From Rhodothermales bacterium (lineage in GTDB: Bacteria > Bacteroidota > Rhodothermia > Rhodothermales > JBHHWM01), in assembly GCA_046756545.1 (NCBI GenBank), contig JBHHWM010000002.1, positions 5,776 through 69,775 on the forward strand: a stretch of DNA of 64,000 nt. The letters run 5' to 3'. The position numbers were made by a program, and so were the translations under genes. Positions 4,551 through 29,544 of this stretch are shown here, in pieces. The notes under the pieces are model-generated. The model was not told the DNA's origin. It saw only the letters and a list, made by a program, of their open reading frames with translations, and ran no database searches. Positions within the stretch are counted from its first letter, which is position 1. Every line of letters starts with the position of its first letter.

Positions 4551-5159
4551 CTACAAAGAATCGTCTGATCGTTCACTCCGGAGGTTGAAGAACAGGTAGA
4601 TGGTAACGGCGGTGGCGGCGGCGATCACGGCTGGTTCGAGGTACCGACGCTTCCAGCTACCCTGGGGCGGGGCCCCTTGCGTTTCGGGAAAGGCTTCCGT
4701 TTCGAGCGTGAGGCGGTCGGTGCGGCGGATGGTATCGGTGAAAACGTCGCGGCACCGGTTTTCCCGGAGCAGCCGTCCGTCGGGTGCCGTCATCGTGTAA
4801 GAGAGGGCCAGCGTGACGGTGCGTGTAAACTGCTTGCGTGGGGCGCGTGCATACGCCACGCGGGCTTCTTCGATTTCGAATTGCAGCCGAGGCAGTGCCA
4901 CGCCGGGTACCTGGAACGACGTGTCGGCCAGGAAGAGGGCGCGGCCTTCTTGCCGCCACCGCCCCGAGAGCGCCGCACGTAGGTAGGGCATCTGCTCCGG
5001 TGCGTCGAGCAAGAACGCCTGCGCTGTGTCCGGCACCTCGGCCAGGCAGCGAACGGCGAGTTCCTGGTAGGCCTCCAGGTTGGTCGGTTGCGCGTGCGCC
5101 GGCCCGGTGAGGACAAGGAAAAGACAGGCCAAGGCGAAGCGGGTGCGAAGCCCCTTCAT
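4551..5159 (-). CDS. Hypothetical exported protein with C-terminal membrane anchor
   Basis: It has a signal peptide MKGLRTRFALACLFLVLTGPAHA/QP and a C-terminal hydrophobic helix AVIAAATAVTIYLFF. I recognise no family. Confidence 0.5.
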   Translation of the reverse strand: MKGLRTRFALACLFLVLTGPAHAQPTNLEAYQELAVRCLAEVPDTAQAFLLDAPEQMPYLRAALSGRWRQEGRALFLADTSFQVPGVALPRLQFEIEEARVAYARAPRKQFTRTVTLALSYTMTAPDGRLLRENRCRDVFTDTIRRTDRLTLETEAFPETQGAPPQGSWKRRYLEPAVIAAATAVTIYLFFNLRSERSDDSL

Positions 5160-5263
5160 GGTACGGTTGGTTGCAGGGTGAAGGTGTTGCGTTGATCAAG
5201 CAGACGAACCCAACACGAGCATAGCGACGGACGACTAAACCTGCAACCCGCTACTCGAAACCT

Positions 5264-11827: not shown

Positions 11828-11914
11828 GCCGGGCTTTGGGGTACGACGGGTTTGCCGAACGGAACGGCAAATCCGTCGTATCAGCCCAGCAAAAAGACAA
11901 CGCGCAGGGTGTGT

Positions 11915-12730
11915 ATGGAACCGTATCGTTTTTTCCCGGGCGAACGCGCCGTTCTCGTCAGTATGCCGCATGTCGGGCTGGAGGTGCCGGAGGAGATCCG
12001 AAGCCGCTTTACGGAGGAGGCACACCTCCTCCCGGATACCGACTGGCACCTCGACCGCCTCTACGATTGGGCACACGATCTGGGCATCGGCGTACTGGCG
12101 GCGACCCACTCGCGCTACGTCATCGACCTGAATCGCCCTCCGACCGACACCCCGCTCTACGCCGGGCCGACCACCGGGCTATGCCCCACCATGTGTTTCG
12201 ACGGAACGCCCCTTTACCACCCCGGACAAGAGCCGGACGAGGACGAACGTCGCCGACGCCTGGAACGGTATTGGACGCCGTATCATGAGCGGCTGTCGCA
12301 CGAACTTCGAGCACTCAAACAACAGCACGGGCACGTCGTCTTGTTCGACGCCCACTCGATCCGTTCGCGGGTGCCACGGCTGTTCTCGGGCCTGCTTCCC
12401 GATTTTAACATAGGGACCAACGACGGCGCGAGTAGTACGCCGGAACTGACCAGCCGGGTTGCAGCGGTGTGTGAGGCGGCTCCGTCGTTCACAACCGTGG
12501 TCAACGGTCGCTTCAAAGGGGGATATATCACCCGGCACTATGGACGCCCCGAGGCCGACGTCCACGCGATTCAGTTAGAACTATCCCAGCGAACCTACCT
12601 GGACGAAGCGCCCCCGTTTGCGTATCGAGACGACCGGGCACGCCGTGTTCGCCCGGTGCTCCGGCAGGTGTTGGAAGCCCTCCTGGAATGGAGCGTCGAA
12701 GAATCCGGCGGCAGCACGTCGGCGGTGTAA
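11915..12730 (+). CDS. hutG: N-formylglutamate deformylase (FGase family)
   Basis: It has the motifs VSMPHVGLEVP, THSRYVIDLNR, VVLFDAHS and GRFKGGYITRHYG...VHAIQLELSQ. I trimmed the start to MEPYRFF at 11915. Confidence 0.8.
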   Translation: MEPYRFFPGERAVLVSMPHVGLEVPEEIRSRFTEEAHLLPDTDWHLDRLYDWAHDLGIGVLAATHSRYVIDLNRPPTDTPLYAGPTTGLCPTMCFDGTPLYHPGQEPDEDERRRRLERYWTPYHERLSHELRALKQQHGHVVLFDAHSIRSRVPRLFSGLLPDFNIGTNDGASSTPELTSRVAAVCEAAPSFTTVVNGRFKGGYITRHYGRPEADVHAIQLELSQRTYLDEAPPFAYRDDRARRVRPVLRQVLEALLEWSVEESGGSTSAV

Positions 12731-12742
12731 CGGGCAGGCCCC

Positions 12743-14119
12743 TCAGGCCAGAGATGCTACCGCCGCTCGATAGCGTGCCGCAATGGCTTCTTCGGAAGGA
12801 TGACGGCCTTCCTGGATGACGTGGTTGCCGCCCACAATAACGTCTCGCACCAGTTCGCCTCCCCCGGCGAAGACGTATGTATCGACGACCCGGTCGTCCG
12901 TTTTGCCGTAGAGCAGGGGCTGGTCGGCGTCGAGCACCACCAGGTCGGCACGGTAGCCGGGTGCGAGGCGACCCACGGCGCGTCCCACGGCGCGCGCGCC
13001 TCCTTCCAGGGCGGCGGCGTAGAGGCCCATGCCGACGGAAGGCGAATCGCCGGTGTGGAGGACGTTGCGCTGGTGCCGGGTCAGCCGTTGTTCGTATTCC
13101 AGCAGGCGCAATTCTTCGGAGGGAGACACCGAGATGTGGCTGTCCGAGCCCAGCCCGAACCGTCCGCCCGCTTTCAGGAAGGCCGCCGTGGGAAACAGGC
13201 CGTCACCCAGGTTGGCTTCCGTGGTGGGGCAGAGGCCCGCCACCACGCCCGTCTCGGCAAGGGCCGTGGTTTCGTCCGGCGTCATGTGGGTGGCATGGAC
13301 CAGGCACCAGCGTTCGGAAACGGCGGCATGATCGAGCAACCATTCTACGGGACGCCGGCCGCACCACGCGACACAATCGGCTACTTCTTTCTCCTGCTCG
13401 GCGATGTGGATGTGGATGGGGGCCGTCGCGTCCAGGTCGTCCAGCAGGGCCAGGACGTCACGCAGCAATTCCGGGGATACGGCGCGTAGCGAATGCGGGG
13501 CGATGCCGATCCGCACCTGTTGGTGGTGGCGGTAGGCGTCCGTCAGGTCTTCAAGAATTTCGGCAAACCCCTTCAGGTCGTTGACGAACCGGCGTTGTCC
13601 GTGGGTGGGTGGCGTCGCGCCGAAAGTGCTGTGGGCATACAGGACGGGCAAGTGGGTGATGCCGATACCGACCTGGCGGGCCGCCGAAATGACACGATGC
13701 GACAGCAGGGCCCGTTGTGCGTAGGGGTGCCCGTCGTTTGCATGATGCAGGTAGTGGAACTCTCCGACGGCCGTGTAGCCGTTTTTCAGCATGTCCACAT
13801 ACAGTTGGGCAGCGGTGGCCTCGACGGTTTCCAGGGTCATTCGGTCGGCCACCTCGTACATGACTTTCCGCCAGGTCCAAAAAGTGTCTCCGGAGGGGCC
13901 TACCCGTTCGGTCAGCCCGGCCATGGCACGCTGAAACGCATGGGAGTGCAGGTTCGGCATGCCGGGCAGGACGGGACCGGCAGCCGGCGGCAGCGCCCCG
14001 CGTTCGGCGTTGGGCCTGATGGTGGCAATGGTGCCGGTTTCGTCAAACTCGATGCGGACGTTCTCAGCCCATCCCGTGGGTAACAGGGCCGAAGGACAGT
14101 AGATTCCTCGCAAACGCAT
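12743..14119 (-). CDS. hutF: Formimidoylglutamate deiminase
   Basis: It is 458 aa of the amidohydrolase superfamily. It carries the motif PGMPNLHSHAFQRAMAGLTE and later HIHIAEQ and GSDS, which is the HutF pattern. Confidence 0.85.
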   Translation of the reverse strand: MRLRGIYCPSALLPTGWAENVRIEFDETGTIATIRPNAERGALPPAAGPVLPGMPNLHSHAFQRAMAGLTERVGPSGDTFWTWRKVMYEVADRMTLETVEATAAQLYVDMLKNGYTAVGEFHYLHHANDGHPYAQRALLSHRVISAARQVGIGITHLPVLYAHSTFGATPPTHGQRRFVNDLKGFAEILEDLTDAYRHHQQVRIGIAPHSLRAVSPELLRDVLALLDDLDATAPIHIHIAEQEKEVADCVAWCGRRPVEWLLDHAAVSERWCLVHATHMTPDETTALAETGVVAGLCPTTEANLGDGLFPTAAFLKAGGRFGLGSDSHISVSPSEELRLLEYEQRLTRHQRNVLHTGDSPSVGMGLYAAALEGGARAVGRAVGRLAPGYRADLVVLDADQPLLYGKTDDRVVDTYVFAGGGELVRDVIVGGNHVIQEGRHPSEEAIAARYRAAVASLA

Positions 14120-14727: not shown

Positions 14728-15477
14728 ATGCATGCTTTTCGCCTGTTCGTCGTGCTTATGTTCCTGGGATGGCTGGGGGCCTGCACCGGCGAATCGCCGC
14801 TCCAACCGGACTGGATCTCGGACCAAGCCGGTGTGTTGACGCAGAACCAGACGTTCACGCTGAGCAATCTTGTGCTCGAACATTGGGAGAACACGACGGC
14901 CCAGATCGTGGGGGTGACGGTGGACGACCTGGAGGGACGCACTATCGAGGAATACACACGTCAACTGGCGAATGAGTGGGGCGTCGGGGAAGCGGGCGTC
15001 AACAATGGCGCGATGATTCTGGTGTCGATAAACGACCGGCAAGTTCACCTCGACGTGGGATACGGCATGGAGTGGCAGGTCACCGATTCGCTGTCTGCAC
15101 GCATCGTGGAAGAGATGGTGCCTTTTTTCAAAGAGGACGATTTTTATACCGGTTTGCGTACGGGTTTCGAGCGGTTGATCGCGGCGAACGAGGGGGGTAC
15201 CTGGAAGGTGGCCTACGGTTCGATGGACGACGCCCTCCAGGCAGGAGAAGAGGCGGCAGGGCAGATCGTCGTCTTCGAAGTTACGGTGACGCAGATTGGG
15301 GAGGACGCGCTAGAGGTCACAACGCCGGGGGATGAACGGGTGAAGATGCTCTTGACGCCCCATACGGATCCTGCCCTGTTCGAATGGGAGCGCCCGTATC
15401 TTTTCCACGCGCGCGTGCAGACAGTAGACCCGCCGGTTGTGAGTATGCTCGGGTTTGAGGAGATGGAGGCATTGTAA
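14728..15477 (+). CDS. TPM-domain (YgcG/TLP18.3-like) lipoprotein
   Basis: It has the lipobox-like WLGAC. The TPM pattern is ISDQAGVLT...TAQIVGVTVDDLEGRTIEEYTRQLANEWGVGEAGVNNGAMILVSINDRQVHLDVGYGME. A C-terminal extension of about 110 aa is of unknown function. Confidence 0.7.
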   Translation: MHAFRLFVVLMFLGWLGACTGESPLQPDWISDQAGVLTQNQTFTLSNLVLEHWENTTAQIVGVTVDDLEGRTIEEYTRQLANEWGVGEAGVNNGAMILVSINDRQVHLDVGYGMEWQVTDSLSARIVEEMVPFFKEDDFYTGLRTGFERLIAANEGGTWKVAYGSMDDALQAGEEAAGQIVVFEVTVTQIGEDALEVTTPGDERVKMLLTPHTDPALFEWERPYLFHARVQTVDPPVVSMLGFEEMEAL

Positions 15478-17519: not shown

Positions 17520-18875
17520 TCACTCGGGCGCGATCCAGCCGGTGCGGCCCGACGGCGAGGCGACGTAGAGAAACGACTCGAACCGGCCGAGGACCGCTAC
17601 CGGCGTTTCCGCCGCCAGGCTGTCGATCGAAAGAGCCGTCGGTGCGGGGAAACGACGCATGGGCCGGCCGTCGGCCAGGCGCACCTCCTGGACCGGACGT
17701 TGCGCCGGTTCGATCTGGACGGCCGCGACGTAGCCGATGGTGCGGTCCGGGAGGCGCACGCGGTACCAGGTGCCGCTGCCCCCGGCCACGTAGAACGCCG
17801 TATGACGCGGCAAGGTGCGGAGCACCTCGGCTCTGGAACGAGGTGCCGCGCGCAACAAGGCGCGGTTGATTGCCACGCGGGTCCACTGGCCGAAGCGGCT
17901 CGTGTCTACGCGGAGGGTAGCGGGCCGGGCACGGGGTACATGGATGAAGGGAAAGGGGTCCACAGGACCGTTTCGGTAAATGCCGAAATGCAGATGCGGC
18001 GGCGTGGTGCGGGCGTTGCCAGTGTTGCCGACGAGCCCGACCGTGTCGCCCACGGACACGCGCATCCCCTGGCGTACGATCTGGCTGTCGAGGTGGGCGT
18101 AGTAGAGGCTGCGTCCGAAGCTGTCTCGAAGCCATACGACCTTCCCGCCGAGCCCTCCGTTGCGCACGCGTGTCACGGCGGCGTTGGCGGCTGCAATGAC
18201 GGGCGTGCCTCGCGCTGCGAAGATATCGACTCCGTGATGTCGGCGTCGGCCCCCGTCGCGGGGGGCTCCGAAGACGCTGCGGATGGCGTCGCTATTCTTG
18301 CCGGCCACGGGGAAGGCGAGCGAGGCGTCGGTCTGGGCGGTGATGGTGTAGCGTCCTCCTCGCAATAGCTCGGGCTGCACGCGCAGGAGGTAGGTGCGCG
18401 TCCGGCGGATGGTGTAGGCGAGCGTTCGCGTGCTGTCGGCGGCGCTGCGGATGTGCCGGGGGGTACCGGTCGAGTCGCGGGGCGCTTCGAAGAGATCGAC
18501 GAAGACACGGGCCGTATCACCGGGTTGCGTGGTTACGTCGATCAGGAGTTGTTGGCCCCGTTGCAGGTCGAAGCGATACCCCACCGCCGCCGGCTGTGCC
18601 GGGTCGAGGTAGCGGGCTTCGCGAAAAGGAAGCGCGATGGAGGTCGCTTCGTCCAACGCACCGAGGCTTGCATCTAGCCATGTCCGGGCCAGCGCTGTTT
18701 CCATCAGCCCGGCTTCTCCCAACGCTGCGGCATATTGTTCGTGGGGTGTCAGCCGTTCGAAGGATGCGCGAACGGATTCTACCTGTTCGCAACCGGCCAC
18801 TACGAGCGCTCCCATCAGCAAGAGCGTTGCATTCATCAGCCCACAGGTCCATGACGTTGGCAAGCGATACAGCAT
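17520..18875 (-). CDS. M23 family metallopeptidase with C-terminal SH3-like region
   Basis: It has the motifs HHGVDIFAARGTPV and GNTGNARTTPPHLHFGIY (LytM/M23). The start may instead be MNATLLLMGALVVAGC (lipobox) at 18836. Confidence 0.85.
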   Translation of the reverse strand: MLYRLPTSWTCGLMNATLLLMGALVVAGCEQVESVRASFERLTPHEQYAAALGEAGLMETALARTWLDASLGALDEATSIALPFREARYLDPAQPAAVGYRFDLQRGQQLLIDVTTQPGDTARVFVDLFEAPRDSTGTPRHIRSAADSTRTLAYTIRRTRTYLLRVQPELLRGGRYTITAQTDASLAFPVAGKNSDAIRSVFGAPRDGGRRRHHGVDIFAARGTPVIAAANAAVTRVRNGGLGGKVVWLRDSFGRSLYYAHLDSQIVRQGMRVSVGDTVGLVGNTGNARTTPPHLHFGIYRNGPVDPFPFIHVPRARPATLRVDTSRFGQWTRVAINRALLRAAPRSRAEVLRTLPRHTAFYVAGGSGTWYRVRLPDRTIGYVAAVQIEPAQRPVQEVRLADGRPMRRFPAPTALSIDSLAAETPVAVLGRFESFLYVASPSGRTGWIAPE

Positions 18876-19091
18876 GAGTGACGTGTTTGGTGAGTAGAAA
18901 CAGGGTTGTTTCCCGAGACAACATTCGAAGGTACGCCAAAATAGTTTCGAACGAAGCGCGCAAGTACGCGGGTCCGCCGCCGGAGGCCCGTCGGTCTTGT
19001 TTCTGACACATCGTGTGCTGTTTCGTTGCTCCGGCTGCGCAAGCTATGGTGTCGCGGGTAGGGCACAAATGCGTCCCTATGTCATCGCTGC

Positions 19092-19120
19092 TGTAAACGA
19101 TCCTCGATGCCCGGGTGTCT
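19092..19120 (+). promoter_or_regulatory. Candidate ECF-type promoter TGTAAAC-N17-TGTCT upstream of the DUF5916 gene
   Basis: I read TGTAAAC at 19092-19098, a 17-nt spacer, then TGTCTCAA from 19116. The same -35-like and -10-like words occur at identical spacing at 22457-22485. Confidence 0.35.
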
Positions 19121-19388
19121 CAATAGGTAGCCTGGAGGGGGTGCAGCACCGTTCTGAAGACGAGGCTCAGGCAAAGGGGGCCGGGCAGTCGAGTGGGCCA
19201 CCGAGGTGATCTCCAAAAAAAAACAACTTTTTTGAGGTCGCGTGCATCCCTGCTAAAAAATTACCGTAGGGGAAATGCTAGAATACTAGCGTCTTTGCGT
19301 TGTGCTCTCTTTTAACCTGGGAAAAGCGTGCACGAGCGCTGATTTCTGCCTCGAAACGCCATCCTCTGGATCAAGCCAAGGACCCACC

Positions 19389-22118
19389 ATGACACGACTG
19401 GTACAGTACCTAAAATTGCTATTTCTCCTTTTCATTCTGAGTACACTGGCCTTCCCGATAGGGTCATCGGCACAAACGCCGCAACCCGTGAAGGACCAGG
19501 AGACGCTGGCGGCCAATCGCGTAGCCGACGACGTAACCATCGACAGGGAATCGGCCCGCCGGCGGGTGCAGGCCATGCGCCGGGAACTGGACCTCTCGGT
19601 CGATGGGCGGCTGGACGAGGCGGCCTGGCAACAAGCGCCCGTCATCGACGGTTTCCTGCAGCGCGAACCGGTCGAAGGAGCCGAGCCGACCGAACGCACC
19701 GTCGTGCGTATTCTCTACGACGACGAGGCCATCTACATTGGCGCACGCATGTTCGACACCGCGCCCGATTCGATTATTGCCCGTCTGGGCCGCCGTGATG
19801 CGCAACTGGATTCCGATATGTTCGGGTTTTTCATCGATCCCTATCTGGACCGCCGCACCGGATTCTACTTTGCGATCAACGCCGCCGGAACGCTCATGGA
19901 CGGCGTGCTCATGAACGACGACTGGGACGACGACACGTGGGACGGCGTCTGGCAGGGCAAGGTCAAGGTTGACGACGAGGGCTGGACGGCGGAGATGCGC
20001 ATTCCCTATTCGCAGCTTCGGTTCCACAAGAGCGACAGTTATACCTGGGGGATCAATTTCCGCCGCGACATCTCTCGCAAGAACGAGCAGATCTATCTCG
20101 TCTACACGCCGCGCAAAGAAAGCGGGTTCGTCTCCCGGTTCGTCGATCTGGTGGGCATCGAGCATATTAAGCCGCCGCGTCAACTCGAAGTAACGCCCTA
20201 CATCACCTCGCAGGCGGCGTTTACCGACGCCGCAGAGGGCAATCCGTTTGACGACGGCTCGACCTTTACCCCCGATTTCGGGGCTGATTTCAAAGTTGGG
20301 CTCACCAGCAACCTGACGCTGAACGGAACGGTCAACCCGGACTTCGGGCAGGTCGAGGTGGACCCGGCGGTGGTCAACCTGAGCGACGTCGAGACCTTCT
20401 TTCCCGAAAAACGTCCTTTCTTTATCGAAGGGGCCACCATTTTCAACTTCGGGCGCGGCGGCTCGAACAACAACTGGGGCTTTAACTTCGGCAATCCCAG
20501 CTTTTTCTATAGCCGCCGCATCGGGCGTTCTCCGCAGGGCAGCATGCCGGCTCACGATTATGCCGACCGCCCTGATGGAGCCCGCATCCTCGGCGCGGCC
20601 AAGCTCACCGGCAAGGTAGGCGGTAGCTGGAATGTCGGGACGGTTCAGGCCGTGACGGGTCGGGCCATGGCCGAGCTGGACCGGGGCGGCGACCGGTTCA
20701 AAGCCGAAGTGGAACCGGCCACGTACTACGGCATCGTGCGGGCGCAGCGCGAGTTTGACGAAGGACGCCAGGCCCTCGGCTTTATGTCGACCACAACGGT
20801 GCGGTCCTTCACCGACGACCGGCTGCGCGACGAGATCAACAGCGAAGCCTTTACCTTCGGTGTGGACGGCTGGACCTTCCTTGACCGGGACAAAACGTGG
20901 GTGATTACCGGCTGGCTGGGGGGGACGCACGTGCGCGGTTCCACCGAGCGCATGATTCGTCTGCAACGCAGTTCGCAGCACTACTTCCAGCGTCCCGATT
21001 TCAAAGCGGCCAGTCTCGACAGCAGCGCCACCTCCATGACCGGCGTGTCGGGGCGGGTGATGCTCAACAAGCAGCGCGGCAACTTCACCACGAACGCAGC
21101 CATCGGGTTCATATCGCCGTCGTTCGATGCCAACGACCTGGGCTTCCAGTGGCAGACCAACATCATCAACGCGCACGTGGTGGGAAGCTATCGGTGGACG
21201 GAACCGAAATCGTTCTACCGGCGCATTCACGTCAACGCGGCGCTCTTCCGCAGTATGGATTTTGATGGAAATACGACCTGGACGGGCGTTTTTGCGAACA
21301 CCTTTATGATGTTCAAAAACTACTACAGCTTCTTTATGGGGGGGGCCGTCAACCCGCAGACGACGAACAACCGCCGCACGCGTGGAGGCCCGCTGACGCT
21401 CAACCCGTGGGGCTGGGAGGTCTTTGGCGGAGCCAGTACCGACAGCCGCAAAGCGTGGGTCTTTAGTGTGAATGGGTTCTCGTATCGGACGGAAGCAGGG
21501 AACAGCGCCAATATCGGCATCGGTGTCGAGTGGAAGCCGGCGGCCAATGTCTCGCTTTCGGTCAGTCCGGGCATTAACTGGAACGAATCCACGGCGCAGT
21601 GGGTGGGTGCCTACGATGACCCCACCGCCGAGGCCACCTTCGGGCGGCGCTACGTCTTCGGCCATCTGGATCAGACGACGTTCTCGTCCAACGTCCGCCT
21701 CAACTGGACCTTTACGCCGGAACTCAGCCTGCAATTGTTCGCCCAGCCGCTGATCTCGGCAGGCGACTATACCGACTTCAAGGAGTTGAAGCGTCCCAAG
21801 AGCTACGACTTCATGATTTACGGCGAAGAGGGATCGACGTTTGACGAAGAGACCTTCATGGCCGATCCGGACGGCGACGGCCCGGTGGCACCGCTGGAGT
21901 TGTTCAACCCGGACTTCAACTTCAAGTCGCTGCGTGGCACGGCGGTGCTCCGCTGGGAGTTCCGGCCCGGTTCCACGCTCTTTCTCGTCTGGACGCAGAC
22001 CCGCGACGACTTCGAAGAGATTGGTGACTTCCAGTTCGGGCCGTCGTTTGGACGTCTCCTGGACGCCAAGCCGGACAACATTTTCATGCTGAAGTTTACC
22101 TACTGGTTATCGCGTTGA
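19389..22118 (+). CDS. DUF5916 / CBM9-like domain outer-membrane protein
   Basis: It has the signal peptide MTRLVQYLKLLFLLFILSTLAFPIGSSAQ. The N-terminal region, VDGRLDEAAWQQAPVIDGFLQREPVEGAEPTERTVVRILYDDEAIYIGARMFD, is typical of CBM9-like + DUF5916 proteins. The long C-terminal part is rich in beta-strands and ends FMLKFTYWLSR. Confidence 0.7.
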   Translation: MTRLVQYLKLLFLLFILSTLAFPIGSSAQTPQPVKDQETLAANRVADDVTIDRESARRRVQAMRRELDLSVDGRLDEAAWQQAPVIDGFLQREPVEGAEPTERTVVRILYDDEAIYIGARMFDTAPDSIIARLGRRDAQLDSDMFGFFIDPYLDRRTGFYFAINAAGTLMDGVLMNDDWDDDTWDGVWQGKVKVDDEGWTAEMRIPYSQLRFHKSDSYTWGINFRRDISRKNEQIYLVYTPRKESGFVSRFVDLVGIEHIKPPRQLEVTPYITSQAAFTDAAEGNPFDDGSTFTPDFGADFKVGLTSNLTLNGTVNPDFGQVEVDPAVVNLSDVETFFPEKRPFFIEGATIFNFGRGGSNNNWGFNFGNPSFFYSRRIGRSPQGSMPAHDYADRPDGARILGAAKLTGKVGGSWNVGTVQAVTGRAMAELDRGGDRFKAEVEPATYYGIVRAQREFDEGRQALGFMSTTTVRSFTDDRLRDEINSEAFTFGVDGWTFLDRDKTWVITGWLGGTHVRGSTERMIRLQRSSQHYFQRPDFKAASLDSSATSMTGVSGRVMLNKQRGNFTTNAAIGFISPSFDANDLGFQWQTNIINAHVVGSYRWTEPKSFYRRIHVNAALFRSMDFDGNTTWTGVFANTFMMFKNYYSFFMGGAVNPQTTNNRRTRGGPLTLNPWGWEVFGGASTDSRKAWVFSVNGFSYRTEAGNSANIGIGVEWKPAANVSLSVSPGINWNESTAQWVGAYDDPTAEATFGRRYVFGHLDQTTFSSNVRLNWTFTPELSLQLFAQPLISAGDYTDFKELKRPKSYDFMIYGEEGSTFDEETFMADPDGDGPVAPLELFNPDFNFKSLRGTAVLRWEFRPGSTLFLVWTQTRDDFEEIGDFQFGPSFGRLLDAKPDNIFMLKFTYWLSR

Positions 22119-22190
22119 GACGACAGCGCGTTGCGAGGTTGGGGCGGTCAACGGTCCATCGTGCAACGCCGTCTGGGGGAGGGAGGGTAC

Positions 22191-22226
22191 AGCCTCCATC
22201 GGTTCGCCGGTGGAGGCTGTTTTTTT
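22191..22226 (+). terminator. Rho-independent terminator after the DUF5916 gene
   Basis: AGCCTCCA (22191-22198) and TGGAGGCT (22211-22218) form a perfect 8-bp stem around a 12-nt loop. The stem is followed by GTTTTTTT. Confidence 0.65.
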
Positions 22227-22456
22227 GGAGCCACCGCAGGGAGGATTCGGTGTGTGGACAAATCCTCGGCTCATCGATTCATCTACACCTCCATGCTTAC
22301 CTTTAACCCATGTTGTGCTCCCCTTGGGTTGCAACGACGCATCGGGAAAACGACGAACCGAAGAGAGGTTTCCCGCTGGTTTGCTCGTCGATTCATCGTC
22401 TCGCCGTCTCCTCGTTTCCACGTTGCGACCGAAGGGCACAACGTGAGTTACCTTTA

Positions 22457-22485
22457 TGTAAACGCTCTCGTCGCTCCTGCTGTCT
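22457..22485 (+). promoter_or_regulatory. Candidate autoregulatory ECF-type promoter TGTAAAC-N17-TGTCT
   Basis: I read TGTAAAC at 22457-22463, a 17-nt spacer, then TGTCTAA from 22481. This lies about 25 nt upstream of the sigma-factor ATG at 22511. AAC-N16/17-(C/T)GTCT is the general ECF promoter architecture. Confidence 0.35.
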
Positions 22486-22510
22486 AAGGGGATGAGCAGA
22501 CGAGGAACTG

Positions 22511-23083
22511 ATGCAGCTAACCAAAACCCTGGTGACCGAACCCCTTCAGCGTAGCGAGCCGCGTACGTTCTGCGAACTGGTGGAACAGTATCAACGGCCC
22601 CTCTATGCCCTGGCCTACGATCTCACCGGCAATCATCATGATGCCGAGGATCTGTCTCAGGAAGTCTTCATCAAGGCGTATCGGGGAGTCTCCGGCTTTC
22701 GGGGCGAAGCGCAGTTGTATTCGTGGCTCTATCGGATTGCCGTCAATACGTACCTGAACAAGCGGCGCAAAAAGGCGCTTCGTTTCCGGCAGTTATGGGA
22801 CGACTTCAGCCAGGCACCCCGCGACCACGCTCCGCAGCGCGGCCCCGAGGAACACCTGGAGGCGGATGCCATCCGGCAGCACGTAGATGCGGCCCTGAAA
22901 ACGCTCTCGCCACGCGAGCGCTCGGCGTTTGTGCTGCGTCACTACCAGAACCTTTCGCTGAAGGAAGTTGCTGCGGTCATGGAAGTGGCCGAAGGTACCG
23001 TCAAGAGCCTGCTGTTTCGGGCAATGCAAAAGCTGCGTACCTCGCTCGCTTTTTACCGTGAAGACCTGGGGTTGCCGTCTTGA
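22511..23083 (+). CDS. RNA polymerase ECF-type sigma-70 factor
   Basis: It is 190 aa. Region 2 is DAEDLSQEVFIKAYRGVSGFRGEAQLYSWLYRIAVNTYLN. Region 4 is LSPRERSAFVLRHYQNLSLKEVAAVMEVAEGTVKSLLFRAMQKLR. Confidence 0.92.
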   Translation: MQLTKTLVTEPLQRSEPRTFCELVEQYQRPLYALAYDLTGNHHDAEDLSQEVFIKAYRGVSGFRGEAQLYSWLYRIAVNTYLNKRRKKALRFRQLWDDFSQAPRDHAPQRGPEEHLEADAIRQHVDAALKTLSPRERSAFVLRHYQNLSLKEVAAVMEVAEGTVKSLLFRAMQKLRTSLAFYREDLGLPS

Positions 23084-23178
23084 GGGGCATGCGATGTAGC
23101 CCCGCCCCTTGACGCTGTGAAAAACCGCACACCGCGCAGGACTTGAAACGACATACCGGTCAGCCTGACCGAACGACC

Positions 23179-24030
23179 ATGAAACACTGTCCGACCTACG
23201 AGCCGCTGATGACCGAGATGTTTTTCGGTACGTTGAGCGAGGAAGACCGGGAACGGCTCGATGCCCACCTGGCGTCCTGTTCCGGATGCCAGGCCATGGT
23301 GCACGAGATGGAAGCCACGCTCCAGGTCGCGGATGCCGGCACGCGGCCCGAGCCTCCGGAAGCCTTCTGGGACGGCTACTACGAGCGCCTCGTCGCGCGC
23401 ATGCATGAGGAGACGCATCGCGCGAACCGTGCCCAACGCCTGAATGAATGGCTGCGCGACATGGGACGGCTGAACGTGGCTGCCCTGGGGCTCACACCGC
23501 GCCGGATCTTCCAGCTTTCGGGCGCTGTGGCCTTGATTGCCGTCGGTGTGTTGATCGGATGGCTGGTTTTTGGTTCTTCGTCTTCGCCCGTTCCCGGCGT
23601 GGCCCACGATCCGTCGGTGGAAGAGGTGCCGGTACGGGCCGCGTCGCTGGAGGCACGCACCGACCGGTATCTCGAACGCTCCAAGGTATTACTGCTGGGC
23701 CTGGTCAACATGGAGCCTGAACGGGATGGCGTTGTCCTGAACCTGAGTCGCAAGCAAGAAGTGGCCCGCGAACTGATCGAGGAGTCGAGCACGCTCAAGG
23801 CGGCGTTGAGCGACGAGGATCAGCGGATGCTGCGTTTGCTGATCGAAGACCTGGAGGTGATCCTGCTCCAGATTGCCAACCTGGAGACCCGTTACGACCT
23901 CTCTGCTATCGAACTGGTTCAGCGTGGGGTAGATCGCCGGGCCATCCTGCTCAAGATCAATATCACGGAAATGCGCCGTGCCGATAACCCACTCCAGCCT
24001 GCCGTAGAGTCTACACTACCTGACCGTTAA
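23179..24030 (+). CDS. Anti-sigma factor (zf-HC2 N-terminus, single TM, helical extracytoplasmic domain)
   Basis: MKHCPTYEPL...LDAHLASCSGCQAMVHEM is the H-x3-C-x2-C zinc-binding anti-sigma motif. The TM helix is AVALIAVGVLIGWLVF. The gene lies immediately downstream of the ECF sigma gene. Confidence 0.72.
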   Translation: MKHCPTYEPLMTEMFFGTLSEEDRERLDAHLASCSGCQAMVHEMEATLQVADAGTRPEPPEAFWDGYYERLVARMHEETHRANRAQRLNEWLRDMGRLNVAALGLTPRRIFQLSGAVALIAVGVLIGWLVFGSSSSPVPGVAHDPSVEEVPVRAASLEARTDRYLERSKVLLLGLVNMEPERDGVVLNLSRKQEVARELIEESSTLKAALSDEDQRMLRLLIEDLEVILLQIANLETRYDLSAIELVQRGVDRRAILLKINITEMRRADNPLQPAVESTLPDR

Positions 24031-24056
24031 CCCTTTCAGATAAGGAGAAAGAAACC

Positions 24057-25532
24057 ATGTGTAAGCAACGTACTCGTCCCTTGTTACGGCTCGGAGGCGG
24101 CATAATCCTGGTGATAGGACTGCTCGGGCTGGCGTGGCCCGCAACGGTCAGTGCCCAGAGCGAGGCGGCGCAAGCCTACGAAGCGGCCTACGATCTGGTT
24201 ATCGACGAAGACTGGAGCGCGGCCGCCGACGCCCTCCGCGATTTCGTGCGGCAGTATCCTCGCAGCGACTGGGTCGATGATGCCGAGTTCTGGCAGTGTT
24301 ATGTACTCGAACAGGCCGAACGCTCTCCCGAGCAGGCATTCGATTGCTATCATAGCTTCGTCAAGGAGCAGCCCCGGAGCAAGTGGACGGACGACGCCAA
24401 GTCCAACGTGATCCGCATCGGGCGGGGGTTGGTACGGAGCGGCAAGCGCGAGTACCAGGCCATCGTCGAGTCGATGCAAGAAAACGGCGATGACGAGGTG
24501 AAGCTCGCCGCTCTCGATGCACTGTGGCAGATGGGCGACGAACGCGCCCTGGAAGCCGTGCTGGATCTGTATGCGACGTCGAGCAGCGAGCGATACAAAA
24601 AGAAGATCGTGTTCGTGCTCTCCCAGTTCGACGACGCCCGGGCCGCCGATAAACTCAAGGAAATCGCCCTCGACGACCCGGAGCCGCAGATCCGCAAGGA
24701 GGCTATTTTCTGGCTCAGCCAGCGCGACGGCGCAGAGGTCATCTCGCTCCTGGAAGAAATCGCGAAAGAGGAAGACGATGTGGAGGTGCAGAAGCAAGTG
24801 GTCTTTGCCTATTCGCAACTGGGCCGCGAAGGCGTGCCGCAACTGATCGACATGGCCCGGGGGCATCGAAACGCGGAAGTCCGCAAAGACGCCATCTTCT
24901 GGCTCTCGCAGATGGGTGGGAGTGAAGCCCTGACCTTCTTCGATGAACTGATCGATGCGAGTGACGATGAGGAAGTGCAGAAGCAGCTTGTGTTCGCGTT
25001 TTCGCAGTTGGGGCAGGAGGCCGTGCCGCGCCTGATTCGGATCGCGCGCGCCCACAAGAGCCGCGAGGTGCAGAAAGACGCTATTTTCTGGCTGAGCCAG
25101 CAGGGCGGTGCCGAGGTGCTGGACTTTTTCGACGAACTGATCGATGCGAGTGGCGATGAAGAGGTGCAGAAGCAACTTGTGTTCGCGTTTTCGCAGTTGG
25201 GTAGGGAAGCTGTGCCGCGCCTGATCCGCATTGCGCGCACGCACAGGAGCCGCGAGGTGCAAAAGGATGCGTTGTTCTGGCTGGGTCAGGAAGGCGGTGC
25301 CGAGGTGCTGGACTTTTTCGACGAATTCATCGACATGAGCAGCAGTCTGGAGGTGCAGAAGCAGATCGTCTTTGCCTACTCGCAGTTGGGTCGCGAAGGC
25401 GTGCCGCGCCTGATCGAAGTGGCGAAGTCGCATCGCGATCCGGAGGTCCGCAAAGATGCCATCTTCTGGCTGGGCCAGAGCGACGACGAGCGTGCCCGTG
25501 AGGCCCTGCTGGAGATTGTGCGCGGACAGTAA
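24057..25532 (+). CDS. Exported HEAT (PBS-lyase-type) repeat protein with TPR/BamD-like N-terminal segment
   Basis: The signal peptide is ...LLGLAWPATVSA/QS. The N-terminal segment has a repeated P(R/K)S.W.DDA pattern. It is followed by about 6 tandem units of about 63 aa of the type EVQKQ.VFA.SQLG.E.VP.LI..A..H...EV.KDAIFWL.Q.GG.E.L.FFDE.I. Confidence 0.75.
   Translation: MCKQRTRPLLRLGGGIILVIGLLGLAWPATVSAQSEAAQAYEAAYDLVIDEDWSAAADALRDFVRQYPRSDWVDDAEFWQCYVLEQAERSPEQAFDCYHSFVKEQPRSKWTDDAKSNVIRIGRGLVRSGKREYQAIVESMQENGDDEVKLAALDALWQMGDERALEAVLDLYATSSSERYKKKIVFVLSQFDDARAADKLKEIALDDPEPQIRKEAIFWLSQRDGAEVISLLEEIAKEEDDVEVQKQVVFAYSQLGREGVPQLIDMARGHRNAEVRKDAIFWLSQMGGSEALTFFDELIDASDDEEVQKQLVFAFSQLGQEAVPRLIRIARAHKSREVQKDAIFWLSQQGGAEVLDFFDELIDASGDEEVQKQLVFAFSQLGREAVPRLIRIARTHRSREVQKDALFWLGQEGGAEVLDFFDEFIDMSSSLEVQKQIVFAYSQLGREGVPRLIEVAKSHRDPEVRKDAIFWLGQSDDERAREALLEIVRGQ
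24942..25319 (+). repeat. Two adjacent in-frame 189-bp tandem repeat units (the most similar pair of a longer HEAT-unit array spanning about 24.57-25.51 kb)
   Basis: My hand alignment of 24942-25130 against 25131-25319 found about 26 mismatches in 189 nt and no indels, or about 86% identity. The final 24 nt, GGTGCCGAGGTGCTGGACTTTTTC, are identical. Confidence 0.8.
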
Positions 25533-25626
25533 TAGGATACTGAGGGGAGATCGTGGGGACACCACGTGTCTCAAGATGCCCCCATGATCTCCCGTCCACA
25601 AGTCACCCGAACAACGGTAGGAAACC

Positions 25627-26715
25627 ATGAAATTCATCGTAACTATAGGGCTTCTTTTCACCGTTTTGGTGCTATGTCCGGCAAGGCTTCAGGCCCAGGA
25701 TGTCATCCGGCATCCGGATGCCTCGGAGGTCCTCGGCCAGAAGTGGGCGTGGGCCGAAGAGCAAGCCGGGCAACACGATTTTCAGCGAGGCTACTGGATC
25801 GGATACAGCATCGAACGCTTGATGGGCGAGCAGTCGTACATCGGCTCGTGGTCGAGTCGAAAACGACGCATGACGCTCCACGAACTGCTGTATGGCGAAA
25901 AGGCAGAGTTCGAGCCCGGACGGGGGCGAGCCTACTATCGCGACGGCGAGCCCGACCGCAAAGTGCTCAAGGAGGTGGCGCTTCTGTTTGAGTTCAGGCA
26001 AGGTACGTCGGAGCCGCACAACGTCCGCGTTACGAACCTGGCGGGGCACGTGGACCTGGAGCGCCATCCGTTGATCTGGCTGGGAGCGGCTGAGGATGAC
26101 GAAAGCCTGGACCTGGTGCAGCAGCAGTACGACCGGGCGCGGTCGGAGGATGCTCGAGAAGAGCTGGTCATGGCCGTGGCGATCCACGATGAAACCGAGC
26201 GGGTCGTCGCGATGCTGGAAGACATCCTCACCGGCAACGACGGCACGGATGTGCGCGAGAGCGCGGCCTTCTGGCTCGGCCAGCAGGATGACAGCCGGGC
26301 CCTCGACCTATTGATCCGGACGGCGCGGGATGATCGTTCTGAAGATGTGCGCGAACAGGCCGTGTTCGGTATCAGCCAGATGGATCTGGCGGCGGCTACC
26401 GAAGCCCTCATCGACCTGGCTCGCAACGCGCGTGGCGAGGTGCGCAAGAATGCCATCTTCTGGCTGGGTCAGAAAGCGTCGGAACGAGCCGTCGAGGCTC
26501 TGGGCGAAATGGTCGAAGAAGATGCGGATACGGAGGTGCAGAAACAGGCCGTCTTTGCGCTTTCCCAACAGTCCGATGACCGGGGTGTGCCGATGCTGAT
26601 CGAGATTGCCAAGACGCATCCGAAGGCAGCCGTGCGCAAGCAAGCCATCTTCTGGCTGGGCCAGAGCAACGACCCGCGCGCCCTGGAAGCTATCATCGAG
26701 TTGGCCAGAGGCTGA
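25627..26715 (+). CDS. Exported HEAT (PBS-lyase-type) repeat protein, second paralogue
   Basis: The signal peptide is MKFIVTIGLLFTVLVLCPARLQA/QD. The N-terminal domain of about 170 aa is unassigned. It is followed by repeats VRESAAFWLGQQDDSRALDLL, VREQAVFGISQM, VRKNAIFWLGQKASERAVEAL, VQKQAVFALSQQ and VRKQAIFWLGQSNDPRALEAI. Confidence 0.75.
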   Translation: MKFIVTIGLLFTVLVLCPARLQAQDVIRHPDASEVLGQKWAWAEEQAGQHDFQRGYWIGYSIERLMGEQSYIGSWSSRKRRMTLHELLYGEKAEFEPGRGRAYYRDGEPDRKVLKEVALLFEFRQGTSEPHNVRVTNLAGHVDLERHPLIWLGAAEDDESLDLVQQQYDRARSEDAREELVMAVAIHDETERVVAMLEDILTGNDGTDVRESAAFWLGQQDDSRALDLLIRTARDDRSEDVREQAVFGISQMDLAAATEALIDLARNARGEVRKNAIFWLGQKASERAVEALGEMVEEDADTEVQKQAVFALSQQSDDRGVPMLIEIAKTHPKAAVRKQAIFWLGQSNDPRALEAIIELARG

Positions 26716-26872
26716 GGGGTATAGCATACCCCCGTGAAATCGGCCCCCGTAGGGGCGACCCTTGTAGTCGGCCCCACGGGGGTGGTCTTCGATACAGGCG
26801 GAATCGTTGTACGGGTTGCCTGGTACAAGGAGCGACGCGTGATGATCAGTCTCTCCTATCCAGTACGAGCCC

Positions 26873-27802
26873 ATGAGCAGAACATCGTTTATCCTTGCGA
26901 GCTTTGTTTTTATTGTGAGCCTGGTGCTGGCCGGTTGCGTTGCGCAGACGGCCCCGTCCAGCGAACCCGCCGAGCCTATTACGGATGCGGCCTATCTCAC
27001 CGGCACCCAGTGGAACGACGGCCAGGCCGAGGTAGCCTTTTACCAGGTAGAACGTACCCGCAATCAGTACGGGCAGGAGGCCGACCAACGCTTCCTCGTC
27101 GGCACGTATCTCGTTAAACATGACTTCGACCGCGCGGCGATGTCGAAGGCGACGGAGGAGGCCGAGCAGCCGGAGCCGTCGTTCAAGTATGCCCTCTTCT
27201 ACGAATTTGAAAGCGGCTCGTATCAGTACAAGCGCAACTACGTCGTCAATGCGGCCCAGGCCGACCTGACGCCCCTCAAAGCGTCCTACACCAGCTTCGA
27301 CTGGTGCTCGAACGCCTATCGCGAACTGGCCTTTCACGCCGACGGCACCGTTGCCGCGCTCATGCGGAGCGACGACTACGGCAATCGCGCCGACGCGTTC
27401 GCCTACCGGGCCAACGCCTATCCTGTTCACGAACTGCCGCTGCTCGTTCGGGGTCTCGACTTCTCTAAAGCCACCGAGCATACCTTCGCCGTCGTCCAAG
27501 CCGACGGCCGGTACGTGCGTGCCCGCGCCCTGTTCGAAGGCCCCGATACCATCGAATTGCTTTCCGGCAACGTGGAGGCCGAGCGCATCGTGGTGCGCTA
27601 TGACCAGCCGGTGCGTTCGCTCGTCGGCGAAGAGACGGATGCCTCCGAGACCTACTGGCGCGGCACCGGGCCGGAACGCTTGTTGCTGAAGCTAGAGGGC
27701 GAGACGGGTCGTTACCGCATGACGCTCGTCGAAGCACTGCGGACGCCGTACTGGAGCGAAAACTTCTGGCCCCGTCTCACCCAGGTGACACAGCGGCCTT
27801 GA
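26873..27802 (+). CDS. Hypothetical lipoprotein
   Basis: It has the lipobox LVLAGC and ordinary composition. I recognise no family. It is the last same-strand gene after the sigma/anti-sigma/HEAT genes. Confidence 0.6.
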   Translation: MSRTSFILASFVFIVSLVLAGCVAQTAPSSEPAEPITDAAYLTGTQWNDGQAEVAFYQVERTRNQYGQEADQRFLVGTYLVKHDFDRAAMSKATEEAEQPEPSFKYALFYEFESGSYQYKRNYVVNAAQADLTPLKASYTSFDWCSNAYRELAFHADGTVAALMRSDDYGNRADAFAYRANAYPVHELPLLVRGLDFSKATEHTFAVVQADGRYVRARALFEGPDTIELLSGNVEAERIVVRYDQPVRSLVGEETDASETYWRGTGPERLLLKLEGETGRYRMTLVEALRTPYWSENFWPRLTQVTQRP

Positions 27803-27872
27803 AAAAGCAAGTGCCCGGCACTTTGGAAGCACCAGGCACTTGCGCACAGCGGTTTTGTGCAGAGGTACGCGG

Positions 27873-28202
27873 TTAGTGATCACGTGGCAAGTGTTCCGCG
27901 AGCGCCTTGGGCCGAGGGACTAGCACGGGACCCCAAGCGTTATCCGATCCGCCGCATTCGTAGAGCGTGCATTCGCCTGCTGCATTCCGCTCCTTGCAAA
28001 CACACCTCCCACCGTCGCCAACGAGTCTGATAGTTGGGAAGGCATCGGCATGCCACCCGCCCTGGGCGGCTATCGCTTCTTGCAAGCTCTCCAGGCTCGG
28101 AGCAAGGTTTTTTTCAGGCTCCTCGCTGTTGATAAAATCACAGGCCGGCAGGAGCAAGAGCACGATCATGCTCATCAAAAGAAGAAATCGAAAGCGTTTC
28201 AT
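27873..28202 (-). CDS. Small Cys-containing lipoprotein, hypothetical
   Basis: It has the signal/lipobox LLLLPAC and the mature segment GGRCVCKERNAAGECTLYECGG with 4 further Cys. It is 109 aa. Confidence 0.45.
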   Translation of the reverse strand: MKRFRFLLLMSMIVLLLLPACDFINSEEPEKNLAPSLESLQEAIAAQGGWHADAFPTIRLVGDGGRCVCKERNAAGECTLYECGGSDNAWGPVLVPRPKALAEHLPRDH

Positions 28203-28395
28203 ATCGCACCTCCTTCAGAGGGTTATTTTCATTTTATGGCTGCATCATGACGCGTAGCGCGTGGATTTTGCCTGATTCCTTTGTGCCTGCGATCATGATG
28301 CGTTCATAAGGAGATGCGCAGCCGCGTTCCAGATTGGAACGGTACACGGTCAGGACATAATGGCAATAAGACGCTGATAACCTGAGATGTGCGTG

Positions 28396-29544
28396 TCAGG
28401 ATAGCGCTCGCATGCATCGGTTGCGGAGATCGGCGAGGCGTTCGACGGGCTCGTTGCTGAAGACGAGGCGGACGAACTGATCGCTGTTGCGTTCGCCCCA
28501 GTCGCGCATGGGCGTGGCGGCCACTCTGCCGCGTTCCAGCAGGAGGCGCGAGGCCGTAAATGAATCGTAGCCCAGTGCTCCGACGTCCAGCAATTGCGAC
28601 CAGCCGCCCGTCGCGGAGATGGTGGGCCAGTCGTGCAGTTGTTCGTTGAGTACGTCCCGCCGCCGTTGCCATTCCGCAACGCATGCCTCCAGGTCGGCCC
28701 GGGGTGATTGCAAGGCGGCTAGGGCACCGGCCTGTGCGATGCCCGTCGGCGTGACGACGTTATAGATGTGGACGCGAGCAATGTCGGCCATGATGGCTTC
28801 CGGTCCCACCACCCAGCCGATGCGCCAGCCGATCATCCGGTATTCTTTCGAGACCGAGCCGACCGTGATGGTGCGCTCGGCCATGCCGGGCAGCGCGGCG
28901 GGATGGATCAGCGGGTGCCCGTCGAAGAGGATGCGTTCCATGGCGGCGTTGTAGAGCAGCCAGAGGTCGTATTCGCGGCACAACGCCGCCACGACGTCCC
29001 ATTCTACCTGAGTCAGCACCGCTCCCGAAGGCATCGACGGATTCATGAGAAACACCACACGCGTGCGTTTGCTAACGGCGGCTTTTAGCGCGTTTAGGTC
29101 GAGTCGCCAGGTGCCGTCCTGCACCACAAAAGGCACCAGCCGGGGCACTGCTCCGGCCAGGCGCACGCGATAGATCATGCCCGCATACGTGGGATCCGTC
29201 AGGATGACTTCGTCGCCGGGGTCGGTCGTAGCCAGTAGGGCATCGAGCATGCCTTCGGTGCCCCCGCAGGTGATGACGACATGCTCCGGGCGATAGCCGT
29301 GGCCGGCGTGTGCGCCTGCATGATGAGCCACCGCTTCGCGCAGCGTGTGTTTGCCGGTGAACGGGAGGTAGCTGTTGTCGTCGTCGTTGCCGAGCGCGGC
29401 CTGTGTGGCGGCACGCACGCCGGAGGGCGGGGCAAGGTCGGTGTCGAGGTTTTCCAGCCGCAATACCTCCGGGTCATCCCCGGCGGCTGCAGCTACGCGG
29501 TCAATCGAGAAGCCGGGAATACCGTGGAGTCGTTGCACGGACAT
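28396..29544 (-). CDS. Pyridoxal-phosphate-dependent aminotransferase (class I/II)
   Basis: It is 382 aa. The motifs are NLDTDLAPP, Y.PFTGKHTLREAV, MNPSMPSG and SVSKEYRMIGWRIGW, which includes the PLP lysine context SxSK. Confidence 0.85.
   Translation of the reverse strand: MSVQRLHGIPGFSIDRVAAAAGDDPEVLRLENLDTDLAPPSGVRAATQAALGNDDDNSYLPFTGKHTLREAVAHHAGAHAGHGYRPEHVVITCGGTEGMLDALLATTDPGDEVILTDPTYAGMIYRVRLAGAVPRLVPFVVQDGTWRLDLNALKAAVSKRTRVVFLMNPSMPSGAVLTQVEWDVVAALCREYDLWLLYNAAMERILFDGHPLIHPAALPGMAERTITVGSVSKEYRMIGWRIGWVVGPEAIMADIARVHIYNVVTPTGIAQAGALAALQSPRADLEACVAEWQRRRDVLNEQLHDWPTISATGGWSQLLDVGALGYDSFTASRLLLERGRVAATPMRDWGERNSDQFVRLVFSNEPVERLADLRNRCMRALS

Follow-up and report, generated by a model that had tools for sequence, protein, structure and literature searches.

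An ECF277-like sigma/anti-sigma module with two predicted exported HEAT-repeat proteins, a conserved promoter and a candidate DUF5916 target in Rhodothermales and other bacteria

Organization and conservation of the locus

Extracytoplasmic function (ECF) sigma factors constitute a major class of bacterial signalling systems and, to our knowledge, most of the catalogued groups, including ECF231, ECF275 and ECF277, have no known signal or mechanism. Here we describe a locus of this kind from a Rhodothermales bacterium, located in a stretch of 64,000 nucleotides (GenBank assembly GCA_046756545.1, contig JBHHWM010000002.1, positions 5,776 to 69,775 of the forward strand) that was analysed as a whole and is referred to below as the window (G+C content 59–67%). 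Five consecutive open reading frames (ORFs) on the plus strand occupy positions 22511–27802, with gaps of 95, 26, 94 and 157 nt between them, and the ORF calls thus bear out a preliminary description, made from the sequence alone, that reported five same-strand genes separated by short gaps. They encode an ECF sigma factor of 190 amino acids (22511..23083), a single-pass zinc anti-sigma factor of 283 amino acids (23179..24030), two HEAT-repeat proteins, HEAT1 (491 amino acids, 24057..25532) and HEAT2 (362 amino acids, 25627..26715), and a lipoprotein of 309 amino acids with a LAGC lipobox (26873..27802), which adjoins the module and is judged to lie outside it. The first four of these genes form a conserved unit that is preceded by a conserved promoter of its own, and an upstream gene for a DUF5916 protein, with a second copy of the same promoter motif, probably belongs to the system as well.

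The conservation of the unit was assessed in 79 related loci (L003–L081) from species-representative genomes, which were retrieved by scanning a genome collection with an alignment of anti-sigma relatives and two peptide patterns; ORFs were called in each locus and then searched with the window proteins. The loci come from Rhodothermales, Aminicenantes, KSB1, Calditrichia, Ignavibacteria (Ignavibacteriales), Latescibacterota, Planctomycetota, Acidobacteriota and other taxa, and all are metagenome-assembled genomes (MAGs), no isolate having been matched by the two patterns used. The sigma factor, the anti-sigma factor and HEAT1 recur in essentially all 79 loci, which shows that the arrangement is not due to chance. 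HEAT1 follows the anti-sigma gene in each of the 70 loci with more than 1.8 kb of DNA beyond that gene, at a median distance of 14 nt (30 nt or less in 59 of 78 loci, with starts refined to the signal peptide), and HEAT1 and HEAT2 are both present in 48 of the 59 loci with enough DNA. The module is therefore widespread, conserved and real; of the same-strand cluster noted in the preliminary description, the fifth gene is not conserved with the others. All-against-all clustering of the neighbouring genes detected a single further recurrent family, DUF5916, in 17 loci.

Several sporadic insertions and neighbours were also seen. A gene for a prolyl-oligopeptidase (S9) with PD40 repeats lies between the anti-sigma and HEAT1 genes in one locus (L007, 1550–3523) and is a candidate periplasmic protease for the pathway; another locus (L008) has a gap of 1.7 kb at the equivalent position (10828–12525). 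A cyclophilin-type peptidyl-prolyl isomerase is encoded between HEAT2 and DUF5916 in L054 (8768–9253) and near the module in L083 (2656–3132), and genes for MacB_PCD/FtsX permeases are found near the module in 17 copies distributed over 8 loci (e.g. L010, 13693–16095 on the minus strand).

The sigma factor and its promoter

The sigma factor has the standard two domains of an ECF (group 4) protein, with matches to Sigma70_r2 (67.6 bits), Sigma70_r4 (59.4 bits) and TIGR02937 (121.3 bits, against a cutoff of 42.9 bits). GTAAAC and GTCTAA are the most shared 6-mers upstream of the sigma gene across the related loci, and in 39 of 70 loci they occur, by strict match, at a fixed spacing as GTAAAC-N18-GTCTAA, with the consensus TTGTAAACCTTT...CCGTCTAAT. 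In the window, this autoregulatory ECF promoter spans 22452..22493 on the plus strand, with a -35 element TGTAAAC at 22457–22463 and a -10 element GTCTAA at 22482–22487 that ends 24 nt short of the sigma ATG. Thus, a conserved self-promoter, TGTAAACC-N-GTCTAA, which to judge from the sources consulted is described here for the first time, precedes the sigma operon.

In the 1.16 Mb of related loci, a position weight matrix (PWM) returned 55 hits of at least 17 bits, of which 50 precede sigma, 2 precede DUF5916 genes (in L054 and L059) and 3 lie elsewhere, compared with 2 such hits in shuffled versions of all loci. When the window was scanned with a PWM trained on the other loci exclusively, its own site being left out, exactly two strong sites emerged in the 64 kb: the sigma promoter at 22452–22493 (23.8 bits) and a site at 19087–19128 (21.1 bits), TGTAAAC-N18-GTCTCA on the plus strand, which lies upstream of the DUF5916 gene, in the 513 nt that separate it from its divergent neighbour. 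In 4 Mb of simulated sequence no match reached 16 bits, so that none is expected in the window by chance. Between the DUF5916 transcript and the sigma promoter sits a hairpin resembling an intrinsic terminator (22189..22220, plus strand), with a 14-bp stem that includes 9 GC pairs, followed by TTTTTTT. A search against Rfam gave no match within 18000–28500. The sharp conservation of the promoter makes regulon prediction possible in MAGs.

Two of the matches in other loci are of separate interest. In L011, a locus that has no HEAT2, a match of 19.9 bits (13494–13535, minus strand) stands ahead of a gene for an exported pentapeptide-repeat protein (12695–13465, minus strand), which may be another member of the regulon. 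In L027, a match of 25.7 bits (15051–15092, minus strand) is aimed at the module from downstream and is followed by no ORF of 100 or more amino acids; a small protein or an RNA is a possible product.

The anti-sigma factor and its periplasmic domain

The ORF of the anti-sigma factor opens with a TTG at 23143, which would reduce the gap to the sigma gene from 95 to 59 nt. An alignment with 19 homologues places the start at the ATG at 23179 instead. The N-terminal anti-sigma domain (ASD, approximately residues 1–80) matches zf-HC2 in Pfam (30 bits), and the family profile, compared with solved structures, retrieves RsiW (5wuq, E = 3.6e-7) and also RslA (3hug). The candidate zinc ligands are C4, H30, C34 and C37; the H30-x3-C34-x2-C37 motif together with C4 identifies the protein as a class I zinc anti-sigma factor (ZAS) of the RsiW-like type, with the four residues almost exactly at the positions that we take to be those of the zinc ligands in RsiW. 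In one subclade of relatives (P0037, P0041, P0085, P0093 and P0106), the zinc-ligand cysteines have been lost from a protein and an operon that are otherwise preserved.

A single transmembrane helix (residues 107–131, 23497–23571) is followed by a periplasmic helical-bundle domain (approximately residues 150–283, 23626–24027). The AlphaFold2 (AF2) model of the protein, based on an alignment of 20 sequences and with a mean predicted local distance difference test (pLDDT) value of 72.7, consists of a confident N-terminal ASD, the transmembrane helix, a disordered linker and then five helices, predicted at residues 157–176, 189–209, 213–233, 241–250 and 253–269. The preliminary description had noted an all-helical extracytoplasmic domain of about 130 amino acids that could not be placed in a family, and this agrees with both the model and the Pfam search, in which the domain had no match to HEAT or to any other family even when the threshold was relaxed to E ≤ 10. 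A search for a known fold with Foldseek gave generic four-helix bundles (FliS, designed bundles, PsbQ), all with E > 0.1, and these were not accepted as relatives.

The domain nevertheless defines a family of its own, for which Pfam has no model. An exhaustive HMMER search with the C-terminal domain alone yielded 779 representative clusters, of which 439 have E ≤ 1e-10, and in the best 150 of the 779 the domain is always C-terminal, in proteins of approximately 210–330 amino acids or in shorter fragments, so that the architecture looks fixed. Full-length relatives of the anti-sigma factor number 426 hits, with 38–67% identity over more than 90% of the length. In one additional locus (L083), a single protein of 543 amino acids with no recorded Pfam hit is encoded after the anti-sigma gene, and HEAT2 is missing.

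The HEAT proteins

HEAT1 and HEAT2 are recognized by HEAT_2 (134 and 83 bits, respectively), and HEAT2 also by HEAT_PBS (68 bits). In both, the N-terminus runs from a charged n-region through a hydrophobic h-region to an AXA-like site. As a proxy for a signal peptide, we used a window of 10 residues with a mean Kyte-Doolittle hydropathy of at least 2.0 within the first 70 residues; such a segment was present in 73 of 74 HEAT1, 51 of 51 HEAT2 and 11 of 11 DUF5916 homologues, versus 1 of 70 sigma factors that served as controls. As the h-region comes after a positively charged n-region, the HEAT arrays are predicted to lie outside the cytoplasm, whether the segment is cleaved or serves as an anchor, in line with the export proposed for them in the preliminary description.

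HEAT1 comprises, after the signal peptide, a TPR segment similar to YbgF and BamD (approximately residues 35–114) and the HEAT array. The matches of this segment to models of YbgF are weak (TIGR02795, 51.4 bits against a cutoff of 90.1; PRK10803, 32.7 against 383), as are those to BamD/YfiO (E = 3.5e-5) and PorW; an identification of HEAT1 as YbgF/CpoB of the Tol-Pal system was rejected, since the scores are below the cutoffs and the alignment is confined to TPR residues 38–114. The array includes a tandem repeat at 24776–25479, with 3.7 copies of a 189-nt unit (63 amino acids, two HEATs) that are 75–82% identical, which suggests a recent expansion of repeats.

HEAT2 was modelled by AF2 with a pLDDT of 89.7 and a predicted template modelling (pTM) score of 0.83; in the model, the signal peptide is followed by a small, conserved, β-rich N-terminal domain (approximately residues 26–154) and 13 HEAT helices. 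W40, W57, M66 and W151 are invariant. The N-terminal domain has no match to a Pfam family in a relaxed search and none in Foldseek, and the only structures that Foldseek matched to the solenoid are the alphaRep binder and armadillo scaffolds. Two other identities were considered and dismissed. Phycobilin lyases and NblB share with the HEAT proteins the repeat type alone (NblB, 50 bits against 300; CpcE, 21.5 against 330; CpcF, 21.5 against 220), and for an RseB/MucB-type protein there is no MucB_RseB match, both HEAT1 and HEAT2 matching HEAT, Arm and TPR families exclusively.

The upstream DUF5916 gene

The gene upstream of the module (19389..22118, plus strand; the ORF opens at 19302 and the ATG at 19389 is the likely start) encodes a protein with a signal peptide, an N-terminal CBM9-like domain and a DUF5916 domain. 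Membership in DUF5916 (PF19313) is clear, with 217 bits over residues 291–936 against a gathering score of 22.6, and the match to CBM9_1, at 23.2 bits, falls slightly below the cutoff of 23.4 bits; a sequence search of the PDB produced no match. Because the protein has a signal peptide, no transmembrane segment, a composition rich in G, F and T and a conserved aromatic C-terminal strand (DNIFxxKFTYWxx), it is likely to be an outer-membrane β-barrel.

Homologues of this gene, always on the strand of the module, occur in 17 related loci, in 13 of which they flank it directly, after HEAT2 or before sigma; among the well-flanked loci, they are present in 10 of 41. In L054 and L059, the ECF promoter is located directly upstream of the DUF5916 gene. 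These associations make the DUF5916 gene, which the preliminary description overlooked, most likely the best candidate target of the regulon, and the target is itself a member of a large family of unknown function. Divergent from it in the window is a gene for a peptidoglycan endopeptidase with Peptidase_M23 and SH3 domains (17520–18875, minus strand). L082 has a similar gene (4726–6087, minus strand) upstream of its module, which may be a coincidence.

Relation to catalogued ECF groups and known systems

In the ECF classification, group ECF277 is listed with a HEAT array fused to the anti-sigma factor in s1 and with separate HEAT proteins in s3 (position +2) and s5 (positions +2 and +3) (Casas-Pastor et al. 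2021; supplementary text, bioRxiv 10.1101/2019.12.11.873521). Its authors suggest that the HEAT repeats belong to the sensing domain, describe the group from Acidobacteria, Prevotella and myxobacteria, call its promoter motifs 'not conserved' and report a PDZ protein in the vicinity, in s1 and, at 0.5 copies per ECF, in s5 (supplementary text, bioRxiv 10.1101/2019.12.11.873521). The locus in the window resembles this group in that the sigma gene is followed at +1 by the gene of a single-pass zinc anti-sigma factor and then, at +2 and +3, by those of HEAT proteins, and the gene order, retained in the 48 of 59 related loci mentioned above, is the s5 pattern. The profile of the anti-sigma C-terminal domain matches the ECF277 anti-sigma factor WP_011688875.1 of Solibacter usitatus over the whole domain (39.2 bits; E = 2.9e-8 when scaled to 1e6 database sequences) and, more weakly, also over the full domain, those of Bryobacter (20 bits) and Terracidiphilus (19.6 bits). 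In Terriglobus saanensis, in contrast, the ECF277 anti-sigma factor has no significant match to the domain: the two look similar by eye, a resemblance that neither hmmsearch nor hhalign (probability 0.14%) supports. The present clade also differs from ECF277 in its sharp promoter motif and in its span over Rhodothermales, Aminicenantes, Calditrichia and other taxa. A general domain scan of window genes turned up no PDZ gene, the related loci not having been scanned systematically.

In group ECF231, the zinc anti-sigma factor carries the periplasmic HEAT array as a fusion, and the -35 element is TGTAACCTT; the group is reported from Aminicenantes and Balneolaeota and has 'adhesins' at +3 and, near ECF231s1, MacB_PCD/FtsX permeases; for ECF275, some anti-sigma factors with HEAT repeats are listed (bioRxiv 10.1101/2019.12.11.873521). 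The promoter motif of the present clade is closest to those given for ECF272 and ECF231, the -35 element of the latter being close to TGTAAACCTT here, and further points of likeness with ECF231 are the tie between a zinc anti-sigma factor and periplasmic HEAT repeats, the permease genes, which are nearby in 8 of the related loci as well, and the shared occurrence in Aminicenantes. The differences are that the HEAT repeats are fused to the anti-sigma factor in ECF231 and are separate proteins, predicted to be exported, here, that the -10 elements differ and that no adhesins were seen at +3. An ECF231-type fused array was rejected for the present anti-sigma factor, whose C-terminal domain has no HEAT match and whose best relatives listed have 125–335 amino acids and no fused array. 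Compared with the few labelled sequences in the tables of the ECF paper, the sigma factor scored nearly equally against ECF231s3 (76 bits), ECF277s4 (72 bits) and ECF111s5 (67 bits).

The composition of the locus is thus already catalogued, being ECF277-like, yet experimentally uncharacterised. The caveat in the preliminary description that the context might be found in ECF classifications was right, given ECF277 s3 and s5, and its remark that extracytoplasmic HEAT arrays are unusual is not supported for this setting, as periplasmic HEAT repeats are listed for ECF231, ECF275 and ECF277 in the supplement of ECF classification 2.0. Its other statement, that no signalling mechanism of this composition has been characterised, appears correct: literature searches on DUF5916, on ECF277, ECF231 and ECF275, and on anti-sigma factors combined with HEAT repeats and a periplasmic location found no experimental work in the library searched. 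What is new here is the promoter, the link to DUF5916, the definition of the anti-sigma C-terminal domain family and the exclusion of the lipoprotein. As the loci sampled are all MAGs, it may be necessary to turn to the ECF277 Acidobacteria for a host in which to do experiments.

Among experimentally studied systems, SigW-RsiW of Bacillus subtilis (5wuq) provides the closest solved relative of the N-terminal domain of the anti-sigma factor (Foldseek TMt 0.71), with a single transmembrane helix as well; the extracytoplasmic part of RsiW is unrelated, and RsiW has no HEAT partners. SigE-RseA-RseB of E. coli offers a functional analogy, in that an operon encodes a sigma factor, a single-pass anti-sigma factor and an exported protein, a position in which HEAT1 and HEAT2 may be placed here. 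RseB binds the periplasmic domain of RseA and gates its proteolysis. In contrast to RseB, HEAT1 and HEAT2 are α-solenoids without any relation to it in sequence or fold, and the promoter consensus is different.

Proposed mechanism and alternative explanations

We moderately favour the view that the locus is a self-inducing, ECF277-like sigma/anti-sigma module in which HEAT1 and HEAT2 are periplasmic partners of the anti-sigma factor and DUF5916 is a target. By analogy with the action of RseB on RseA, HEAT1 and HEAT2 would bind the periplasmic bundle of the anti-sigma factor as a sensing or shielding complex, a role that the fused HEAT arrays of ECF231 and ECF277s1 presumably play in an equivalent manner. 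An envelope cue would disturb this complex, the anti-sigma factor would then be removed by regulated proteolysis, and the freed sigma factor would transcribe its own operon and the DUF5916 gene more strongly. The strict co-inheritance of the HEAT proteins with the anti-sigma factor makes a partner role in the periplasm the best reading of their presence, and the resemblance of the HEAT2 repeats to the protein-binding alphaRep scaffolds counts in its favour. Hence, of the sensory partners suggested in the preliminary description, the HEAT proteins are retained, on account of their predicted export and co-inheritance, and the lipoprotein is not.

The main alternative is that HEAT1 and HEAT2 are outputs, that is, sigma-induced periplasmic scaffolds or chaperones for the maintenance of the envelope or for the assembly or function of the DUF5916 protein, with the anti-sigma bundle sensing alone. 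We regard this as possible, if rather unlikely. Located downstream in an autoregulated operon, the HEAT genes would be induced along with sigma, and co-membership in the operon is equally expected if their products are outputs; the resemblance of the HEAT1 N-terminus to YbgF (51 bits), BamD/YfiO and PorW would suit such a function, and so would the DUF5916 gene, which has the same promoter motif and often comes directly after HEAT2. However, every TPR match is under its family cutoff, HEAT1 is tied to the anti-sigma factor in 70 of 70 loci at a median gap of 14 nt, compared with linkage of DUF5916 in only about 25%, and in related ECF groups the HEAT array is within the anti-sigma polypeptide itself, which together tilt the balance towards the HEAT proteins being partners. 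Apart from operon co-membership, several observations weigh against that reading. The argument from fusion holds for the type of domain, not for orthology, because the profile of HEAT2, when run against the HEAT-fused ECF277s1 anti-sigma factors as a Rosetta-stone test, scored at most 16 bits (approximately 15 bits, the level of generic repeats) and its N-terminal domain was unmatched. HEAT2 is missing in approximately 19% of the loci, no site-1 or site-2 protease has been identified for the pathway, DUF5916 is within the examined flanks in only about a quarter of loci, and the promoter of the DUF5916 gene in the window is approximately 260 nt upstream of its start codon.

Two further explanations are far less probable. 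A thiol/zinc redox switch of the RsrA type, in which the zinc ASD would sense oxidative or disulfide stress and the periplasmic parts would be irrelevant to signalling, could draw on the H-x3-C-x2-C motif with C4 and on weak matches to RsrA (18 bits) and ChrR; these scores, however, are far under the family cutoffs, the protein is anchored in the membrane and its periplasmic domain is strongly conserved, and the subclade that has dispensed with the zinc cysteines, protein and operon being otherwise retained, argues against such a switch, which we therefore consider very improbable. The best structural relative, RsiW, is controlled by proteolysis through PrsW and RasP, not by redox state, and the same is assumed for the present anti-sigma factor. 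Least credible of all is a five-gene unit in which the anti-sigma factor would have the lipoprotein, along with the HEAT proteins, as a sensory partner: the lipoprotein gene shares the strand of HEAT2, which it follows after 157 nt, and its product is exported, but none of the 79 related loci has a homologue within 10 kb, not even the closest (L003, with an anti-sigma factor 63% identical), its family is conserved in Rhodothermales and Salinibacter in unrelated neighbourhoods, and a GC-rich hairpin lies in the gap ahead of it.

If the HEAT proteins are indeed partners of the anti-sigma factor, they would represent a new type of accessory regulator beside the RseB paradigm; otherwise, the locus is just another ordinary envelope-stress operon. 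A bolder version of the partner role, which we think doubtful, is that the anti-sigma bundle, HEAT1 and HEAT2 make up an undescribed periplasmic complex that monitors the state or the ligand of the DUF5916/CBM9 outer-membrane protein, by a route distinct from those of RseB/DegS, FecA/FecR and SusC-type systems and common in uncultured members of the FCB group (Fibrobacterota-Chlorobiota-Bacteroidota), Acidobacteriota and related phyla.

The lipoprotein and the downstream region

The lipoprotein has no family match in Pfam, even with the threshold relaxed to E ≤ 10, and no sequence match in the PDB. Its family, to which some sources give the name DUF3108, has members in Rhodothermales and Salinibacter that are 55–80% identical, and the neighbourhoods of the homologues from Salinibacter sp. 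10B and another Rhodothermales genome contain no sigma, anti-sigma or HEAT genes; given these unrelated contexts, the gene lies outside the module and is a bystander. The loci with the gene in these contexts are L084 (8001–8924) and L085 (8001–8918); in L085, it adjoins the curli genes csgEFG and an M50 peptidase gene. The GC-rich inverted repeat between HEAT2 and the lipoprotein gene (26744..26782, plus strand; arms of 16 nt, 88% complementary) is a possible end of the module transcript, an assignment that is uncertain because no T-run follows. Downstream of the lipoprotein gene, a small convergent gene (27873–28202, minus strand) encodes a putative lipoprotein of 109 amino acids with an LLPAC lipobox and without a family match, relaxed Pfam search included. 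It keeps its place beside the lipoprotein gene in two short metagenome contigs, and in the window the two genes are separated by a 17-bp hairpin at 27807–27843.

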